NCBI GenBank assembly: GCA_965116495.1
Contig: OZ220696.1
Span: forward strand, 288,001-352,000
Reading direction: 5' to 3'
Length of the DNA: 64,000 nt
Source of the DNA: Gammaproteobacteria bacterium
GTDB taxonomy: Bacteria; Pseudomonadota; Gammaproteobacteria; Eutrophobiales; Eutrophobiaceae
Shown: positions 3,450 to 16,316 of the stretch, piece after piece
How positions within the stretch are numbered: the stretch's first letter is position 1
How the letters are laid out: every line of letters starts with the position of its first letter
Program-made: the position numbers and the translations under genes
The notes under the pieces: model-generated
Databases searched by the model: none
Seen by the model: the letters and a program-made list of their open reading frames with translations, nothing else
What the model was told of the DNA's origin: nothing

Positions 3450-3476
3450 GAATTAAGAATTACGAATTACGAATGA
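3442..3476 (+). repeat. Heptamer tandem array, left arm of element 1 (5 x NGAATTA)
   Basis: GGAATTA AGAATTA AGAATTA CGAATTA CGAATGA, read directly. Confidence 0.9.
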
Positions 3477-3559
3477 ATGTGCCGCCTGTGGCGGCTGTCT
3501 ACCTATGAGTCGTAGATTATTCGTAAGCCGGACCGAGACACATAGTGATATAACACCCC

Positions 3560-3678
3560 CAATTCCCAATTCCTAATTCCTAATTCCCAATTCCCAATTC
3601 CCAATTCCCAATTCCCAATTCCTAATTCGTAATTCCTAATTCCTAATTCGTAATTCCCAATTCGTAATTCCCAATTCC
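3560..3678 (-). repeat. Heptamer tandem array, right arm of element 1 (17 x YAATTCS), inverted relative to the left arm
   Basis: 17 consecutive CAATTCC/TAATTCC/TAATTCG/CAATTCG units; overlaps the 3' end of psd. Confidence 0.95.
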
Positions 3679-8435: not shown

Positions 8436-8666
8436 CTACTCATCAAACCAGCGATCCAGTTCATCGGTTTTCAGTTCTTCAATAGTGTAGGTGTTGAACG
8501 ACTTATAGACTTTCCAGTTGTATATTTTTGCCTCGATATCCAGCGTCTCCATGGCGTCTGCCTGCTCCAGCCGGACCCGGTATTTCCTGATTTGACCGTC
8601 GGCATAGTCATTACATTGCCTGACGAAATCACTGATGATTTTTTTCTTTTCCGTAACACTGACCAT
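8436..8666 (-). CDS. Small hypothetical protein (76 aa, helical)
   Basis: ATG 8666 preceded by AGGAGA; MVSVTEKKKII...WKVYKSFNTYTIEELKTDELDRWFDE has natural composition. Confidence 0.7.
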   Translation of the reverse strand: MVSVTEKKKIISDFVRQCNDYADGQIRKYRVRLEQADAMETLDIEAKIYNWKVYKSFNTYTIEELKTDELDRWFDE

Positions 8667-8724
8667 AATATTCTCCTGGCTGGTAGTTGAAAGGACTTGC
8701 ACTGCACGCCAGTCTTTTCCATAT

Positions 8725-8810: not shown

Positions 8811-10055
8811 ATGGCTGATTATGTCACACATACCTTACCTGATGTCAGGTTGACCGATCACCTTCGTGAGATACTGGCCCAGCTTGACGAATCCAATGTT
8901 GAATTGAAGGACTGCATTAGCATGCCGCCGGCGGTATATACGTCCGAAGAGTGGTTCGATTTCGAGAAGCGGGCTGTCTGGGACAGGGAATGGATCTGCG
9001 TGGGGCACGTGGGTACGATACCACAGGCGGGCGATTACGTGTCCGTTACGATCAACGAAGACCCTCTCCTGGTACAGCGGCGGGATGACGGCGGCGTGCG
9101 GGTCATGTCTGCAGTGTGCCAGCACCGCGGTCACCTGTTGGGAGAGGAAAAAGGCAATACCCGGGTTTTTACCTGCCCTTTCCATGGCTGGTCCTACGAT
9201 GAAACGGGCAAGCTGGTCAGCGCCCCGGAAATGGACACTCATGCCAGCCTGGGTGAATTGCAGCAAAAATATTGCCTGCCGACATTGCGTACCGAGGTGT
9301 GGAACGGTTTTATCTTTATCAACATGGATGGTAACGCAAAACCCCTCGCCCCGCGCCTGAAACGGCTCGGCAAGGAGATTGAGAACCATCACCTCGCCGA
9401 GATGGGCGGTGTGCCTACGGTTGACTGGGGACCCAGTCCGTGGAACTGGAAATTCATGCACGAGAATGCCATTGAACCCCATCACACCTGGTACCTGCAC
9501 AAAGGGCCGCACGATTTTGCCCCTTCCAAGCTGGCTACTTTTGCAGAATGGGACGATTTCGATGACGGCGCCATATATCACCCGACCGGGTTCCTGGAAC
9601 TGGATGGTAATTTTACCTCTGCTTTCAGTTGCCTGTTTCCCGTGATCGAGGGCTTGAGCGAAAATGAACGCAAGCGGGTAATGTTCGCCTGTATCCTGCC
9701 CAACCTGTTCTTCGGTTGTGTGCCGGACGGTTGTTTTTATTACTGTATCCTGCCACAGGGCGCCAATGCCATGACCATCCGGGTCGGTTTTGTCTATCCT
9801 AAATCTACTCTGCGCATGGATAACTTCGATATCATTTTCAAGGCCGTTGTCATGGGTCTGGAAACCCTGAATGACCAGGATACCGGCGCCAACACCAATG
9901 TTCACAAGGGCCTGCGGTCACGTTTTGCGCCGCGTGGACGCTATGCCCCGAAAGAGGCGACCCTGCCGCAATTCAACCGCTGGTTGATAACCCGCTACAA
10001 GGCTTACGCGGCAGAGCTTGAAGGACGTAAGCAGACAGCTAAGCGGGTTGCTTGA
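8811..10055 (+). CDS. Rieske non-heme iron oxygenase alpha subunit
   Basis: Rieske motifs CQHRG and CPFHGW; mononuclear Fe site NWKFMHENAIEPHHTWYLH plus a C-terminal Asp (NDQD). ATG 8811 with a GGGGA RBS. Confidence 0.93.
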   Translation: MADYVTHTLPDVRLTDHLREILAQLDESNVELKDCISMPPAVYTSEEWFDFEKRAVWDREWICVGHVGTIPQAGDYVSVTINEDPLLVQRRDDGGVRVMSAVCQHRGHLLGEEKGNTRVFTCPFHGWSYDETGKLVSAPEMDTHASLGELQQKYCLPTLRTEVWNGFIFINMDGNAKPLAPRLKRLGKEIENHHLAEMGGVPTVDWGPSPWNWKFMHENAIEPHHTWYLHKGPHDFAPSKLATFAEWDDFDDGAIYHPTGFLELDGNFTSAFSCLFPVIEGLSENERKRVMFACILPNLFFGCVPDGCFYYCILPQGANAMTIRVGFVYPKSTLRMDNFDIIFKAVVMGLETLNDQDTGANTNVHKGLRSRFAPRGRYAPKEATLPQFNRWLITRYKAYAAELEGRKQTAKRVA

Positions 10056-10057
10056 GG

Positions 10058-10106
10058 GGAATTAAGAATTACGAATTACGAATTAGGAATTAGGAATTAG
10101 GAATTA
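10058..10106 (+). repeat. Heptamer tandem array, left arm of element 2 (7 x NGAATTA)
   Basis: GGAATTA AGAATTA CGAATTA CGAATTA GGAATTA GGAATTA GGAATTA. Confidence 0.93.
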
Positions 10107-10186
10107 GTGCATCCTGGCAATTAGCAATCCATATTGTAAATTTTGCCAGAACTGAAATCCTTACACGTCGCCACATGCGTCTCATT

Positions 10187-10261
10187 CAATTCCTAATTCC
10201 TAATTCCTAATTCCTAATTCGTAATTCCTAATTCGTAATTCCTAATTCGTAATTCGTAATT
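10187..10261 (-). repeat. Heptamer tandem array, right arm of element 2 (10 full units plus a partial YAATTCS)
   Basis: CAATTCC followed by TAATTCC/TAATTCG units, ending 8 nt before the ATG at 10270. Confidence 0.93.
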
Positions 10262-10269
10262 ATATCGAT

Positions 10270-11022
10270 ATGAGTAATGAACTTGCCGAAATAAAGGGAC
10301 TGCTGGAAAAGCTGGATGCCAAGTTGACCCACCTCGAAGACGTGGAGGCGATACAGCGCCTGATAGTAACGTACGCCAGGGGTTGTGATCGCGGCAATGA
10401 CCCTGACGTCATCGGCCCCTGTTTCGCAGAAGACGGTACCTGGGAATGCAAGGGTTTCGGCAAATACCATGGCCGGGATAAACTGGCAAGGGGACTGCAC
10501 GGGATTGCCGGCGAGAAAATCTGGTGGTCGTTACACTACATGATCTCCCCGCTTATCGACATCGCTCCTGACGGTCTCAGCGCCACGGTATTCTGGTACC
10601 TGTGGGAATCGGCAACCGTACCCAACCCCCACACCAATGAGGCGGAATCCCACTGGATAGGCGGCACCTACGACTGTCAGTGCGTCAAGCGGGACGGACG
10701 CTGGCTGTTCCAGTCCATGGAATTGAAGCTGAATATGGTGAGTCCGTACGACGACGGTTGGGTAAAAGCCAAATTCCTCGATGGCAGCCGTAATTCACCC
10801 TACCTGATGAACCTGGACGAGGGTGAGTATTACTGGTGCGCCTGCGGCCGCTCGCAAAATCAGCCGTTCTGCGACGGTTCCCACAAGGAAACGAGACGCG
10901 TGCCGCTGCAATTCAAACTGGACGGCTTCCAGCATGTTGCCCTGTGCGGTTGCAAGTACTCGAAAACCAAGCCCTGGTGTGACGGTTCACATTTAAAACT
11001 CAACCTGGACCAGGGTTCCTGA
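10270..11022 (+). CDS. SnoaL/NTF2-like domain fused to two CDGSH [2Fe-2S] motifs
   Basis: N-terminal LEDVEAIQRLIVTYARGCD...F.EDGTW...H...P.IDI...A...WYL...GGTYD...DGRWLF (SnoaL_4-like). C-terminal WCACGRSQNQPFCDGSH and LCGCKYSKTKPWCDGSH. Confidence 0.88.
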   Translation: MSNELAEIKGLLEKLDAKLTHLEDVEAIQRLIVTYARGCDRGNDPDVIGPCFAEDGTWECKGFGKYHGRDKLARGLHGIAGEKIWWSLHYMISPLIDIAPDGLSATVFWYLWESATVPNPHTNEAESHWIGGTYDCQCVKRDGRWLFQSMELKLNMVSPYDDGWVKAKFLDGSRNSPYLMNLDEGEYYWCACGRSQNQPFCDGSHKETRRVPLQFKLDGFQHVALCGCKYSKTKPWCDGSHLKLNLDQGS

Positions 11023-11024
11023 CC

Positions 11025-12677
11025 ATGCTTTCCAGAAGAATATTCCTTAAATCATCCGTCGCGGCTGCAGGCGCGCCCCTGGCTGCCCATGCAGGGATGG
11101 TGGCAGGAGATGAACTGCAGGGGACCCCCCAGCCGGAGATTTTAACACCTGCCGAGTACAACCAGGCTGTTGAGGAATTGCGTCAGGTCGTCGGTGCTGA
11201 GTGGGTGGTTACCGATGAACAGCAGGAACTGAGAACGTATCGGGATGTCTATTCGACGCTACCTGACGAGGCTAATATGCCGTCTGCAGCGGTTGCGCCC
11301 AGGACCGTTGAGGAGATCCAGGCCATCCTGGGCATTGCCCGCAATTATAAGATTCCCCTTTGGACCGTTTCCACCGGCAAGAATTATGCCTACGGCGGTC
11401 CGGCGCCGCGCAAGCCCGGTTTTTTTGTCCTCGATTTAAACCGCATGAAGCGTATCATCGAGGTCAACGAGGAACACGGCTATGCCGTGGTTGAACCGGG
11501 GGTCAGCTATTTTGAGTTGTATAATTACCTGCAACAACGCGGCAGCAAATTATGGATAGACCCTGCGGCCCCGGGTTGGGGCAGCGTACTCGGCAACCTG
11601 TCGGAGCACGGAGCCGGTTACACACCCTATGGCGACCACCTGTTGATGAACTGCGGTATGCAGGTGGTGCTCGCCGACGGTACCGTCGTTGATACCGGCA
11701 TGGGGGCCTTGTCCGGCTCCACTACGTCCAGCCTGTACAAATATGGTTGCGGACCCTGGGTGGAAGGCATGTTCACCCAGTCAAATTTCGGCATCATAAC
11801 CAAAGTGGGTATCTGGTTGATGCCCGAGCCGCCGGGATACCGGCCATACCTGGTGACATTCCCGCGCGAAGAAGATCTTTACCGGATTACCGAGGTTGTC
11901 GGTCCCTTGCGTCTTAATATGTTGATACCCAATGCGGCAACGACCGTAGGACTGATCTGGGAAGCTGCCCCCAGGGCAACCAGGAAGCAGTATTACCGCG
12001 GTAAGGGTCCCATGCCCATGCGCCATCGCCAAAAAATGGCGGAGGACCTGGACATCGGCATGTGGAATTTTTACGGCGCGCTGTATGGACCTGAACCGAT
12101 TATGGATAACAACTGGAAAGTCCTGGAAGAGGCCTTTCGCAGCATCCCCGGCGCTAAATTTTACTTTGAAGGGGACAGGCCGAATGATCCGGCCTGGCGC
12201 TACCGGGTCAAGCTTATGCGCGGCGAACCGAACATGACCGAATTCAGCTTAATGAATTGGGTGGGCAGTGGTGCGCATATCGATTTCTCGCCGCGCTCAC
12301 CGGTAACCGGCGAGGATTCCATGAAACAGTTCACACTGATTAGGGACCGGGCGAATGAGTACGGGTTCGATTATATCGGTGAGTTCCTGGTGGGATGGCG
12401 TGAACTCCTGAACATCTTTCAACTGGTTTTTGATCGCCTGGATGACGATGAGCGGCGCCGCGCCCATGAGTGTTTCGGCCTGCTGGTCAATGATTTTGCC
12501 GAACAGGGTTATGGTGAGTACCGTACCCATCTCAATTTCATGGACGAGATTGCCGCCACCTATAACTGGAACGAAGGGGCGCTATGGAAATTACACCACA
12601 GAATCAAGCAGGCGCTCGATCCGGATGGTATTTTGTCACCGGGTAAAAGCGGCATTTGGCCATCTCAGGTAAGTTAA
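11025..12677 (+). CDS. VAO/PCMH-family FAD oxidoreductase (4-alkylphenol methylhydroxylase-like flavoprotein) with Tat signal
   Basis: Tat motif SRRIFLK; STGKNYAYGG, VEPGVSYFEL, GSVLGN, GYTPYGDH, FTQSNFGIITK, GYGEYRTH and LDPDGILSPGKSGIWP. Confidence 0.9.
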   Translation: MLSRRIFLKSSVAAAGAPLAAHAGMVAGDELQGTPQPEILTPAEYNQAVEELRQVVGAEWVVTDEQQELRTYRDVYSTLPDEANMPSAAVAPRTVEEIQAILGIARNYKIPLWTVSTGKNYAYGGPAPRKPGFFVLDLNRMKRIIEVNEEHGYAVVEPGVSYFELYNYLQQRGSKLWIDPAAPGWGSVLGNLSEHGAGYTPYGDHLLMNCGMQVVLADGTVVDTGMGALSGSTTSSLYKYGCGPWVEGMFTQSNFGIITKVGIWLMPEPPGYRPYLVTFPREEDLYRITEVVGPLRLNMLIPNAATTVGLIWEAAPRATRKQYYRGKGPMPMRHRQKMAEDLDIGMWNFYGALYGPEPIMDNNWKVLEEAFRSIPGAKFYFEGDRPNDPAWRYRVKLMRGEPNMTEFSLMNWVGSGAHIDFSPRSPVTGEDSMKQFTLIRDRANEYGFDYIGEFLVGWRELLNIFQLVFDRLDDDERRRAHECFGLLVNDFAEQGYGEYRTHLNFMDEIAATYNWNEGALWKLHHRIKQALDPDGILSPGKSGIWPSQVS

Positions 12678-12680
12678 ACA

Positions 12681-13070
12681 GTGCTCCCTGTGTCCTCCGT
12701 GGCAAAAATATCCGTGGCAATATTGTTGTTATTGCTGGCGGGCTGTGGCGGTGATGAAGCCCCCGGGACAGGTGAGGCGGCAGTCGGGCAGGCCACCATG
12801 GCGATAGACCAGTATGATGGCAAAGGCTTGTTCGAGTTATATTGTATCGCCTGTCATGGCGCGGGACCCGGCCACCCGGGTACCATGCGCCTGCAGGAAA
12901 GGCTGAGTGAAGATCAGGCGCCCCTGCTCAGCCGGGATAACCTGGAGCCCGAGTATGTAAAGCTGGTGGTACGGGAAGGCTTCAAGCTGATGCCGCCGTT
13001 TCGCCCCAGTGAAATCACCGATAAGCAGTTGGACCTGTTGACGGGCTATATTACGGGGGAAGAAAACTGA
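12681..13070 (+). CDS. PchC-like monoheme cytochrome c with lipoprotein signal
   Basis: CIACH heme motif, HPGT, and VREGFKLMPPFRPSEITD (Met ligand); lipobox LLAG-C. The start may be GTG 12699. Confidence 0.88.
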   Translation: MLPVSSVAKISVAILLLLLAGCGGDEAPGTGEAAVGQATMAIDQYDGKGLFELYCIACHGAGPGHPGTMRLQERLSEDQAPLLSRDNLEPEYVKLVVREGFKLMPPFRPSEITDKQLDLLTGYITGEEN

Positions 13071-14554
13071 TGGATATGGAGACCGTCACATTATCACCTG
13101 AGGCCCGGGCCGTAGCGAAACGGGTCCGCAATCTACGTGATTACCTTGAATTACTGGCTGAGCACGGTCAGTGTATTACCTGGCCGGAAGCAGTCATGCC
13201 AGAGCCTGATATCCGTAAGGTTGTCGTTGCGTCCGGGCGCGATGCAATGGCGGGGCCGGCCATCCTGTTTGACAAGATCCGCGGTTACCCCGGAAAAAGA
13301 CTGGTAGTAGGCGTGCATGGCAGTTTTTCCAATATTGCCCTGCTGTTGGGCAAGACGAAAGGGACCAGTATCAAGGAATTGTTCTACGAACTTATAGGTC
13401 GTTGGGGCTCCGACAGGCCGCTGATCAACAGGGTGGAACCGGAAGATGCACCGGTGCACGAGAACAGGCTTGAAGCTGATATCAACCTGTATGACCTGCT
13501 GCCGTTGTATCGTATCAATTCCCTGGATGGCGGTTTTTATATCGCCAAGGCCAATATTGTCAGCCGCGATCCCCGTGACCCCGATAATTTTGCCAAACAG
13601 AACGTGGGAATATACCGCATCCAGGTACAGGGTCCTGACCGATTTACCTTGTTGTCTGTCCCGTCCCATGACATGGCGCAACAGATCCGCATGGCGGAAC
13701 AGGATGATGTCCCGTTGAAGATCGCCGTGATGATCGGCAACCACCCGGCCATGGCCATGTTTGCAGCCACTCCGGTGAATTACGACGAATCGGAATTTGC
13801 CTACGCCTCGCAGATGATGGGCAGCCCCATTGACCTGACCCGGTCCGGCAATGGCCTGGATATCCTCGCCGGCTCGGAAATGGTCATAGAAGCGCAATTA
13901 TTGAATAACCGGCGCTGCCTGGAAGGGCCGTTCGGAGAATTTCCGGGTAGTTACAGTGGTATTGGCCGAGTCCCCCTGTTCCAGGTGACTGCCGTATCCC
14001 ACCGTACCGAGCCCATCTTTGAAAGTATTTATATCGGCAAGGGCTGGACCGAGCACGACACCTTGATCGGGCTGAATACCTCTGCGCCCATTTACTCCCA
14101 ATTAAAGGAAAACTTTCCTGAAGTCGTTGCGGTGAACGCCTTGTACCAGCACGGTTTGACCGCGATCATTTCGGTGAAGAACCGGTTTGCCGGTTTCGCC
14201 AAATCAGTTGCCATGCGCGCCCTCGGGACACCCCACGGCCTGTTGTACCTGAAAAACCTTATCATGGTGGACGACGACGTGGATCCCTTTGATCTCAACC
14301 AGGTGATGTGGGCTCTGTCCACGCGCACCCGCGCCGGTGATATTATCGTCATACCCAACATGCCAATGGTGCACATTGACCCGTCTGCGGAAATTCCGGG
14401 CAAGGGACATCATCTTATCATTGACGCAACCAGCTTCATGCCGCCTGATCCCATCGGCGCTGACGCAAAAATCGTAGCGCCGCCCAGGGGTCCCGAAATA
14501 GATGACCTGGCAAAGTATATTCATCGTTTGCAAAGAGAGGCGGAAAACCGATGA
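13070..14554 (+). CDS. UbiD-family prFMN-dependent phenolic acid decarboxylase subunit C (VdcC/BsdC-like), copy 1
   Basis: Motifs GVHGSFSN, QNVGIYRIQV, EGPFGEFPG, WTEHDTL, ALYQHG and VDPFDLNQVMWALSTR. Confidence 0.92.
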   Translation: MDMETVTLSPEARAVAKRVRNLRDYLELLAEHGQCITWPEAVMPEPDIRKVVVASGRDAMAGPAILFDKIRGYPGKRLVVGVHGSFSNIALLLGKTKGTSIKELFYELIGRWGSDRPLINRVEPEDAPVHENRLEADINLYDLLPLYRINSLDGGFYIAKANIVSRDPRDPDNFAKQNVGIYRIQVQGPDRFTLLSVPSHDMAQQIRMAEQDDVPLKIAVMIGNHPAMAMFAATPVNYDESEFAYASQMMGSPIDLTRSGNGLDILAGSEMVIEAQLLNNRRCLEGPFGEFPGSYSGIGRVPLFQVTAVSHRTEPIFESIYIGKGWTEHDTLIGLNTSAPIYSQLKENFPEVVAVNALYQHGLTAIISVKNRFAGFAKSVAMRALGTPHGLLYLKNLIMVDDDVDPFDLNQVMWALSTRTRAGDIIVIPNMPMVHIDPSAEIPGKGHHLIIDATSFMPPDPIGADAKIVAPPRGPEIDDLAKYIHRLQREAENR

Positions 14555-14793
14555 ACTGCCCCCGCTGCCGCTCAACCAAAGAACACCTGCGGGTCGAATA
14601 CCAGGGCAGGGAAGGGGATGCCGTGCTCTGGACCGTGTATCACTGTAACCGTTGTTCGTTCACCTGGCGCGACAGCGAGCCGGCCGAATCGATAAATTAT
14701 ACAAAGCGGGAAGCCTGGTTCAGGGCCGATCCGGACCACCCGGAAAAATACAAACACAATATTCCCCCGGCAAGCCCGGACACAGGGGAATGA
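14551..14793 (+). CDS. Phenolic acid decarboxylase subunit D (VdcD/BsdD-like Zn-ribbon), copy 1
   Basis: CPRC...WTVYHCNRCSFTWRDSEP...IPP; ATGA overlap with the C subunit. Confidence 0.88.
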   Translation: MNCPRCRSTKEHLRVEYQGREGDAVLWTVYHCNRCSFTWRDSEPAESINYTKREAWFRADPDHPEKYKHNIPPASPDTGE

Positions 14794-14882: not shown

Positions 14883-16316
14883 ATGTCAAAAATATTGATC
14901 AATAAACTGAGAAAAGAACTGGGCAGGGACGCTGTTTTGTCCGGCGCCGTTGCCGGTGATCGTTACTCACGCATCGGCAAATCACCGGTCGGTGTGGCGC
15001 TGCCGGAAGATATTGAACAGCTGCGGGCTGTATTGTCAGTTGCTGATGAAAGCAATATCTCGCTATGGGTCCTGCCCAACACGGCAGCTAACGGAGGCGT
15101 GGTTGGTCCTGCAACGGATAAGGATATCCTGGTAATCGATCAGTCCCGTATGAACAAAATCGTGGAGGTGAACGTCAAGGGAGCTTACGCACTGGTGGAA
15201 CCGGGCGTGAGTTATATGCAGTTAAATAACTACCTGCAGGAAAACAGGACCGGCCTGTGGGTGGATTGCGACAGGAACGGCTTGAACTCGGTTGCCGGCA
15301 GCATCAGCGCCCGGGAGTTCGGCTGTACCGCCTACGGCGACCACACAATGATGCAATGCGGTATGGAGCTCATTCTGGCTGACGGCGAACTGGTGAGACT
15401 GGGTATGGGCGCCATGCCGAAGAGCAACACCTGGCAGCTGGCAAAATATGCCTACGGCCCCTACCTGGATGGCCTGTTTACGCAATCCAACCTGGGCATC
15501 GTGACCAAAATGGGCGTATGGCTGATGCCGGCGCCGCCTGCATACCAGCCCTTCGCTGTGACCTTGAAGAGCGACGGTGACCTGGCCCAGGCGCTGGAGA
15601 TATTGCGTTCATTCAAGGTTAACGTAATCATTCCGAACACGGTGGTCATCAGTAATCCGGAACTGGATGCGAGTCCTTACGCGTCACGGGATGATTATAC
15701 CGACGGCAAAACGGTCGATACGGAACGGCTGGCAGCGGATTATGGTCTGGGCCAGTGGACCCTGTATGGGGCCTTGTATAACACCCCTCCCAACATCGAT
15801 GTATTATGGCCCATGGTACGCAGCGCATTCGCCGGCATTCAGGACGCTGTAGTGTTCGACCTGAACAACCAGGCGGACAACCCGGTATTTGCCGGCAGGG
15901 AGAACATGATGCGCGGCCGGCCCTCGCTGGAATTCAGTAACCTGAACAACTGGTCCGGCCAGTCTCACCTGTACGCCGGGTTTGTCTCCCCCATTGACGG
16001 CCGGCAGGTATTGAAGATGAATAAACTGGCCAGCGACACGGTGCGCAGCAGCGGATTTGATTACCTGACGGAGTACGCGGTCGGCTGGCGCTCCGTCATC
16101 CAGCGGGTTTATCTGACGTATCAAAGTGAAGCCGAACCCAGGGCGGTCGCGTGTCTTGAAACATTGATAGACTCGATGGCACAACGGGGTTTCGGCGTGA
16201 GCCATATCAGCACCGGGTACCTGGACCGGGCCCTGGCCGGCTATGATAACGCCGGCATGTCCGAATTGCGCGGCAGGCTCAAACAGGCGCTGGATCCCGG
16301 CAACCTGTTTGCCTGA
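14883..16316 (+). CDS. Second VAO/PCMH-family flavoprotein, divergent, no signal peptide
   Basis: Retains VEPGVSY, YGDH..MQCGMELILADG, GPYLDGLFTQSNLGIVTKMGVWLMP and LKQALDP. Lacks the GxNxxYG and YR motifs. Confidence 0.85.
   Translation: MSKILINKLRKELGRDAVLSGAVAGDRYSRIGKSPVGVALPEDIEQLRAVLSVADESNISLWVLPNTAANGGVVGPATDKDILVIDQSRMNKIVEVNVKGAYALVEPGVSYMQLNNYLQENRTGLWVDCDRNGLNSVAGSISAREFGCTAYGDHTMMQCGMELILADGELVRLGMGAMPKSNTWQLAKYAYGPYLDGLFTQSNLGIVTKMGVWLMPAPPAYQPFAVTLKSDGDLAQALEILRSFKVNVIIPNTVVISNPELDASPYASRDDYTDGKTVDTERLAADYGLGQWTLYGALYNTPPNIDVLWPMVRSAFAGIQDAVVFDLNNQADNPVFAGRENMMRGRPSLEFSNLNNWSGQSHLYAGFVSPIDGRQVLKMNKLASDTVRSSGFDYLTEYAVGWRSVIQRVYLTYQSEAEPRAVACLETLIDSMAQRGFGVSHISTGYLDRALAGYDNAGMSELRGRLKQALDPGNLFA

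Follow-up and report, generated by a model that had tools for sequence, protein, structure and literature searches.

The 64,000-nucleotide stretch analysed here (the window: positions 288,001 to 352,000 of contig OZ220696.1, assembly GCA_965116495.1, from a gammaproteobacterium) carries the gene of a Rieske oxygenase alpha subunit (8811..10055, + strand). Behind it, on the same strand, lies a gene for a 250-amino-acid fusion protein (10270-11022) that joins an NTF2/SnoaL_4 domain (residues 1-172; 10270..10785) to a tandem CDGSH domain of the type 6 CISD or CISD3-like kind (10786..11022). In the reading we prefer, with a probability of about 0.55, the fusion is a trimeric NTF2 lyase acting on the product of the oxygenase, its CDGSH domain gives auxiliary redox or cluster support, and electrons reach the oxygenase from a conventional ferredoxin and reductase encoded elsewhere. 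The original prediction had described an intact alpha subunit followed by such a fusion, and the Pfam assignments, metal ligands and CDGSH motifs bear this out. It had also offered, as an alternative, a LinA- or BaiE-like lyase with an Asp-His pair; this prediction is now strongly supported by the fold, the sequence matches and the conserved pocket.

Judged by its sequence, the fusion is no chance join. It forms one coherent family, because at 50% clustering a single full-length representative spans both domains among the best 150 matches. Both Pfam domains (SnoaL_4 and zf-CDGSH) are present in 103 of the 120 homologues listed, and an Atlas cluster of 169 members also has both. Gene order was compared in 144 loci, the window and 143 fetched: the fusion is present in 95 and an unfused form in 41, while contig ends truncate the remaining 8. 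Once 18 fused loci with less than 1.5 kb of upstream sequence had been dropped, a Rieske alpha gene was found directly upstream of the fusion in 75 of the remaining 77, so that the co-occurrence suggested as a check by the original prediction holds. The alpha belongs to the lineage of the window gene (clade A) in 68 of these loci and to a second lineage (clade B) in 7. The two exceptions are L021, with no alpha in 9.3 kb, and L034, where the alpha lies 4 kb off on the opposite strand. Clustering at 90% leaves a count of 38/40; all these pairing counts include kin and hence overstate the number of independent events. Among 151 related genomes, a clade-A alpha is present in 21/21 with the full fusion, and the fusion in 21/22 with a clade-A alpha, the sole genome without it being 83% complete. 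Moreover, the pairwise identities of the alpha and of the NTF2 domain correlate (rho 0.66, 39 pairs, shared ancestry not removed). By record title, the hosts are Gamma- and Alphaproteobacteria, Binatia, delta proteobacteria, one planctomycete and one actinobacterium. The alpha-fusion pairing is real, and there is strong support for a link in function with the Rieske gene.

The NTF2 domain matches SnoaL_4 over residues 21-150 of the fusion (Pfam, E 9e-23), and the AF2 monomer model of the fusion has a confident two-domain fold (pLDDT 94, pTM 0.88). Among the 50 structural matches listed, LinA comes first (Z 18.9, rmsd 1.7, 142 aligned) and LdpA second (Z 17.1, rmsd 2.3, 167 aligned); LdpA is the top match by Foldseek and by sequence. 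The closest solved relatives, LinA, LdpA and BaiE, are all lyases. Residues Y35, D40, H89 and Y134, including the D40-H89 pair, are invariant across 90 fusion homologues and in every gap-free row among 138 fused and unfused locus proteins. The domain also has a near-invariant E113 and aromatic residues of its own. The four invariant residues align with Y35, D40, H97 and Y147 of NaLdpA, which are needed according to the mutagenesis reported for that enzyme (PMC9942872). In LdpA, His97 and Asp40 are described as the base, Tyr35 and Tyr147 as the oxyanion hole and Glu143 as the residue that drives dehydroxylation (PMC9942872). Motif I of LdpA is thus found in the fusion. Motif II (Glu143/Tyr165), called exclusive to LdpA in the same report (PMC9942872), is absent. 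The NTF2 domain likely works in the manner of the LinA, LdpA and BaiE lyases, yet its reaction is likely not that of LdpA, because I130 and L152 replace E143 and Y165.

The alpha subunit (414 amino acids from an ATG start; PF00355 and PF00848) retains all its metal ligands: C103, H105, C122 and H125 of the Rieske centre, the catalytic H225, H230 and D357, and the bridging E222. They are invariant or near-invariant in 108 homologues. In the list of open reading frames (ORFs) the gene can also be extended to an upstream TTG at 8697. By sequence profile and by fold its best matches are CntA and Stc2, of the beta-less group. CntA is a beta-less alpha3 trimer (PMC7948474), and by analogy with these nearest structures we infer an alpha3 assembly without beta subunits. 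Position 203 of CntA is Tyr or Phe in group Va and Asn in group Vb (PMC7948474), unlike the near-invariant Ala220 found there in the window alpha. A quaternary amine is an improbable substrate, because this substrate-defining residue fits neither group.

When the proteins of the window were scanned against Pfam, no ferredoxin, oxygenase reductase or PF00866 beta subunit was found, as the original prediction had noted for the 64 kb. Genome-wide searches with hidden Markov models (HMMs) placed the nearest candidate 283 kb away. This situation is common in the genome: 35 of its 49 Rieske alphas have no partner within 32 kb, so the missing partner at the window locus is not special. The other 14 have a ferredoxin or reductase candidate within that distance, counted generously, some of the candidates being PaaE- or PadH-like. 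Elsewhere the genome encodes two HcaD/AndAa-like reductases, three BenC/MmoC-like reductases and three HcaC/AndAb-like Rieske ferredoxins. The electron chain is not missing, a conventional ferredoxin and reductase being encoded elsewhere in the genome. Between them, the 49 alphas draw on about three Rieske ferredoxins and a few reductases. A match to a Rieske-type ferredoxin was obtained in 34/34 records tested, that is in 31/31 distinct fusion genomes. Within 40 fusion clusters a ferredoxin adjoins the alpha in 15, divergent from a clade-A alpha and with the fusion present; a ferredoxin is absent in the other 25 and a reductase in all 40. The Rieske centres of oxygenases lie at roughly -100 to -150 mV. 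The CISD3 potential of about -31 mV, a single one for its two cooperative clusters (PMC10937110), lies above these values, so that a CDGSH domain would be a poor, uphill donor of electrons to a Rieske centre.

The tail of the fusion contains two complete 3Cys-1His CDGSH motifs (residues 190-205 and 226-241) 20 residues apart. This is the arrangement that defines type 6 CISDs, two complete motifs about 20 residues apart (PMC3174974). From the homology to 3TBN and 6AVJ we infer that the tail would hold two [2Fe-2S] clusters. Motif 2 is intact in 95/95 fused loci and motif 1 in 87/96 fusions; as far as sequence conservation can tell, the tail is under selection, since its C-terminal motif is unbroken in all the fusions examined. 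The nine decayed copies of motif 1 all fall in the sphingomonad branch of the clade in which a ferredoxin adjoins the alpha; the ferredoxin is seen in 7, and the other 2 loci are cut short. Decay beside a ferredoxin fits partial redundancy of CDGSH and ferredoxin. It needs no special cause, because a single degenerate motif is found in 17% of type 5/6 CISDs generally (PMC3174974).

Unfused relatives of the NTF2 domain keep the same Tyr/Asp/His pocket. They occur with a clade-B alpha, 25-28% identical to clade A, in 25/30 loci and with a clade-A alpha in none; a ferredoxin is found in 14/30 of these loci and a reductase in 12/30. In the NTF2 tree one change between the unfused and fused states suffices (support 86/79), which is compatible with a single origin of the fusion. 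The present genome has both forms: besides the window locus, a further fusion and alpha that were duplicated together lie at C1:1.965 Mb, and a clade-B cluster at C1:3.32 Mb contains two unfused copies. Among 13 paralogous pairs the fusion comes first in 7 and is divergent in 4; one shows no adjacent alpha match and one is uninformative. No fusion adjoins five clade-A alphas (identity 53-54% for the three that were aligned): they stand beside genes for a TonB receptor and an alcohol dehydrogenase-like protein, or no fusion occurs within 1.5 kb. One kind of protein thus serves two alphas that are only 25-28% identical, and does so in flexible order; this suits a pathway enzyme better than a dedicated structural subunit.

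These data suggest the following sequence of events. NAD(P)H, a reductase and a Rieske ferredoxin encoded in trans would reduce the alpha3 oxygenase. Going by gene context, the oxygenase would then hydroxylate an aromatic compound at one of its ring carbons to give an unstable diol or carbinolamide; the likeliest substrate is a benzo-fused N-heterocycle related to indole, benzimidazole or quinoxaline. The H89-D40 dyad of the fusion would then act as the base while Y35 and Y134 hold the oxyanion, and the elimination predicted from these residues would amount to C-N cleavage, dehydration or loss of an aldehyde. Amide or urea hydrolases and ring-cleaving enzymes would complete the pathway. The least certain step concerns the CDGSH pair, which, added once to an older stand-alone lyase, might buffer electrons for the oxygenase or donate clusters to it.

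The proposed substrate is drawn from the neighbourhoods. An amide or urea hydrolase gene is present in 15/15 unfused and 17/52 fused genome loci. In Gammaproteobacteria and Binatia the neighbours are PchCF-like, VdcCD, HpaB and extradiol dioxygenase genes; in delta proteobacteria they are a molybdenum hydroxylase, catechol 1,2-dioxygenase and urease accessory genes, and in sphingomonads TauD-like, ribokinase-like, isochorismatase, amidase and urease genes. The one experimental foothold is on the unfused branch. In Acinetobacter piscicola p38, ACDW34_08345, the gene of an unfused NTF2 relative (34% identical), lies between a Rieske alpha and a skatole-degrading monooxygenase in a skatole-induced operon, and in the presence of skatole the alpha is up 5-fold, a small protein 69-fold and a formamidase 4.8-fold (PMC11434297). 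The experiments described in that report addressed flavoprotein monooxygenases, not the Rieske and NTF2 genes (PMC11434297). The corresponding NTF2 protein of plasmid locus L205 is 34% identical to the window domain, with the Tyr, Asp, His, Glu and Tyr residues conserved. From this gene context a benzo-fused N-heteroaromatic compound is the likeliest class of substrate; a phenolic substrate is possible, because the neighbours in the window are of the phenol type. Two described pathways were considered and set aside. The riboflavin/lumichrome pathway uses similar enzyme types, but its Rieske enzyme is an alpha/beta pair, and NTF2, SnoaL and CDGSH do not appear in the text consulted. The Rieske genes of Rhodococcus ska/skt encode an unrelated alpha/beta aniline dioxygenase.

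Several observations weigh against a lyase supplied by conventional carriers. The lyase activity is predicted from residues and fold, and the Tyr/Asp/His set is common in the NTF2 fold. In 6 genomes the ferredoxin matches are weak (best E 1e-18 to 2e-21), and these proteins may work with other enzymes; the ferredoxin-adjacent fusion loci form one mainly alphaproteobacterial clade, that is about one event. The restriction of motif 1 decay to this clade hints that CDGSH and ferredoxin overlap in role. The tight order (68/77 directly behind clade A) would also be expected of a subunit. As to the substrate, 35/52 fused genome loci are without an amide or urea hydrolase, and the PchCF-like, VdcCD and HpaB genes of the window suggest phenols, not N-heterocycles. 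The skatole link is restricted to the unfused clade-B branch, and the NTF2 gene of p38 (gene1686) is not among the differential-expression rows given in the part of the report consulted (PMC11434297).

The alternative that survives best, although we consider it unlikely, retains the pathway lyase and makes the CDGSH domain only a sensor of redox state, O2 or NO, or a stability module, without any supply of electrons or clusters to the oxygenase. NEET proteins do act as redox sensors, CISD3 reacts with H2O2 and NO (PMC10937110), and, with a degenerate motif in 17% of type 5/6 CISDs (PMC3174974), the decay of motif 1 calls for no particular explanation. However, the fusion tracks one oxygenase lineage, including the co-duplicated pair, and an oxygenase-related task fits this better.

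Somewhat more doubtful is the possibility put forward by the original prediction, that the fusion serves a new alpha3beta3 oxygenase as its beta-like subunit, with CDGSH replacing the ferredoxin as carrier to the Rieske centre. The alpha directly upstream in 75/77 informative loci, the genome co-occurrence (21/21 and 21/22 among 151 relatives), the correlated identities (rho 0.66 over 39 pairs, with shared ancestry not removed), the clusters without reductase (40/40) or ferredoxin (25/40) and the decay of motif 1 only beside a ferredoxin are all in its favour. Kinship to beta subunits was nevertheless not found. Pfam gives only SnoaL_4 and zf-CDGSH, with no PF00866 match, and NCBIfam no beta model; beta subunits are absent among 39 PDB matches of the family profile at E<=1, and hhalign against an AndAd-like beta returns a probability of only 2.4%. 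Nor is there a beta subunit among the 50 fold matches listed, which does not exclude one further down. Because BenB also matches SnoaL_4, that match alone cannot separate a lyase from a beta subunit. The conserved catalytic pocket, an alpha closest to CntA and Stc2 with CntA itself an alpha3 enzyme (PMC7948474), the flexible order in the 13 paralogous pairs, the five clade-A alphas without an adjoining fusion, the CISD3 potential of about -31 mV (PMC10937110), which would make CDGSH an uphill donor, and the ferredoxins in 31/31 fusion genomes all speak against this idea, which is not supported.

Least probable of the three is a cofactor-carrying dehydrogenase, in which the His-Asp base deprotonates the product and the clusters take up two electrons, perhaps returning them to the oxygenase. 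The confident inter-domain packing of the monomer model (pTM 0.88), a motif 2 that is never lost and the cooperative clusters of CISD3 with their one potential (PMC10937110) would fit it. So would the distribution of a cluster of short-chain dehydrogenases/reductases (SDRs), possible diol dehydrogenases, present in 10/15 unfused but only 1/52 fused genome loci, a count that rests on a single sequence cluster. Against it stand the same pocket in the unfused relatives and the outright loss of motif 1 in some fusions, which would leave no two-electron capacity; we also know of no NTF2 enzyme that uses an Fe-S cluster. Transfer of two electrons by the NTF2 base from the oxygenase product through CDGSH to the Rieske centre is just as improbable; if true, the oxygenase would partly recycle its own electrons, and a bacterial CISD3-type domain would have its first enzymatic job.

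The combination of domains appears to be new to the literature within reach of our search, which left subscription papers mostly outside: it returned nothing joining CDGSH with a SnoaL/NTF2 domain and nothing on SnoaL/NTF2-like proteins and Rieske enzymes with an amidase cluster or a formaldehyde lyase. Known CDGSH fusions include type 5 with glutamate synthase and type 7 with DUF1271 (Lin 2011, PMC3174974), and the partners in Sengupta 2018 are Fer4_19, Glu_synthase, ferritin-like and Rieske_2, with no SnoaL or NTF2 in the text and supplement as consulted. The function of CISD proteins is yet to be understood, according to the classifying paper (PMC3174974). In the present family a CISD3-type module is linked to a single defined oxygenase that can be purified. 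The unfused relatives and the one-cluster variants of Novosphingobium provide natural controls, and there are cultured hosts (N. profundi F72, Leaf2, AP12, Rr 2-17, BL-52-GroH). The choice between electron carrier, cluster donor and sensor thereby becomes directly testable for NEET-type domains. The family also suggests that several phyla possess an undescribed module of oxygenase plus lyase for the catabolism of aromatic, probably N-heteroaromatic, compounds.

Between the alpha and fusion genes lies an intergenic element (10066..10255) of inverted arrays of a 7-bp unit that would fold into a long hairpin (-82 kcal/mol, z -13). It is dispensable for the pairing, because the alpha-fusion gap in close relatives is 15-215 bp. 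Similar inverted 7-bp arrays occur at 3457-3656 of the window, and 16 similar forward/reverse repeat pairs with variable middles, resembling elements of the REP/MITE type, are found in the genome. Contigs from RNA libraries of relatives, which are no proof of a transcript, cover pieces of both genes, none spanning both. On the minus strand at 8439-8702, a conserved 88-amino-acid ORF without a family match is divergent from the alpha in 18 close-relative loci. Downstream, all on the plus strand, a VAO/PchF-type FAD oxidoreductase (11025..12677; FAD_binding_4 and FAD-oxidase_C in Pfam) starts 3 bp past the fusion; the PchF name goes beyond what Pfam gives and is our assumption. It is followed by a small c-type cytochrome identified by the domain scan (12681..13070), which we take to be PchC-like, a UbiD decarboxylase (13070..14554) above the VdcC cut-off (657.6 vs 650 bits), a VdcD subunit recognised by a model match (14551..14793) and a second VAO/PchF-type flavoprotein (14883..16316; domain scan and genome HMM search). 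The genome has about ten UbiD-family genes.

Other observations were made on the two clades and their relatives. The second fusion paralogue of this genome (C1:1964785-1966737; L144:8786-10735) stands before its alpha; a TonB receptor gene precedes it, and genes for RidA and a 2OG-Fe dioxygenase follow. At L175 (G038) the clade-A alpha is split in two frames and the fusion of that genome lies beside a clade-B alpha, and at L051 the fusion is split over two frames; both may reflect decay or sequencing error. Among 401 genomes of the family of L047, a clade-A alpha occurs in the centre genome alone, and 21 more distant alphas in these genomes have no NTF2-family neighbour within 1.5 kb. Right behind most clade-B alphas (L133:294-668 and 34 other loci; in this genome at C1:2053288, 3318750 and 3322005) lies the gene of a protein of about 120 amino acids with no named family, a candidate for an unrecognised small subunit; in p38 this is the gene raised 69-fold by skatole. 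The region C1:3308000-3340000 (L145-L146) is a large catabolic cluster in which clade-B alphas, unfused NTF2 relatives and homotrimeric ring hydroxylases number two each; it also has a formamidase, an amidase, a cyclase, isochorismatases, a ferredoxin and ring-cleavage dioxygenases, and likely serves an N-heteroaromatic compound. In Acidobacteria (L056, L058, L060, L120, L121) the unfused clade-B module comes after genes resembling glycine/sarcosine/betaine reductase and one for an amine oxidase, which makes an unusual combination of oxygenase and reductase genes.

Larger fusions joining CDGSH-NTF2 to an alpha or a reductase were not found among 115 longer matches, for which only 7987 candidates were scored; these matches are mostly fusions of CDGSH with glutamate synthase or with a Rieske domain and a thiamine enzyme. 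The latter, tandem CDGSH plus Rieske plus thiamine-pyrophosphate enzyme, recurs in P0242, P0248, P0291, P0326 and P0333. P0236 (306 amino acids, a Rieske N-part plus CDGSH) was rejected as a likely chimera, being known from one 2-kb contig and ending before the Fe-binding Asp, and P0120 was put aside as a likely chimera as well. Two stand-alone tandem-CDGSH proteins are encoded in the genome at C1:759571-759843 and 998579-998824, the first adjoining an opposite-strand gene for a Rieske-domain protein.

Compared with known systems, the alpha subunit is nearest to the group V Rieske monooxygenases CntA, Stc2 and GbcA, its best sequence and structure matches, and its E222 corresponds to the bridging glutamate E205 of CntA. 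However, it is only about 20% identical to them, and the window locus has no nearby gene for a CntB-like reductase. With the alpha3beta3 dioxygenases (NDO, BPDO, LumCD) the locus shares an NTF2-fold gene directly behind the alpha gene, but the fusion has no sequence kinship to beta subunits, keeps a catalytic pocket and occurs in reversible or divergent order; LumCD, for its part, is an alpha/beta pair that runs with a ferredoxin and a reductase. The skatole operon of p38 (ACDW34_08330-08350 onward) combines a formamidase, a clade-B alpha, the small protein and an unfused NTF2 relative in the same order as L205, which adds a ferredoxin and a reductase; it differs from the window in being unfused, in having no CDGSH and in its Rieske clade. 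The tail matches CISD3/MiNT (PDB 3TBN, 6AVJ), with E 3.8e-19 and rmsd 1.4 A over 71 columns for 3TBN, and unlike other type 6 CISDs of the MiNT/CISD3 kind it is fused to an NTF2 enzyme domain. Finally, the trimeric SnoaL_4/NTF2 lyases, namely the gamma-formaldehyde lyases LdpA (LsdE) and PcfL together with LinA and BaiE (PDB 8ABT/8ABU/8ABV, 3A76, 4LEH), resemble the NTF2 domain in fold, long N-terminal helix, Tyr35, Asp40-His dyad and second oxyanion-hole Tyr. The fusion is 22-26% identical to LdpA and is without its motif II, and the C-terminal arm of LdpA gives way to the tandem CDGSH domain. LdpA is reported to be cofactorless and colourless (PMC9942872), whereas the fusion has a predicted Fe-S tail and belongs to a family tied to a Rieske gene.

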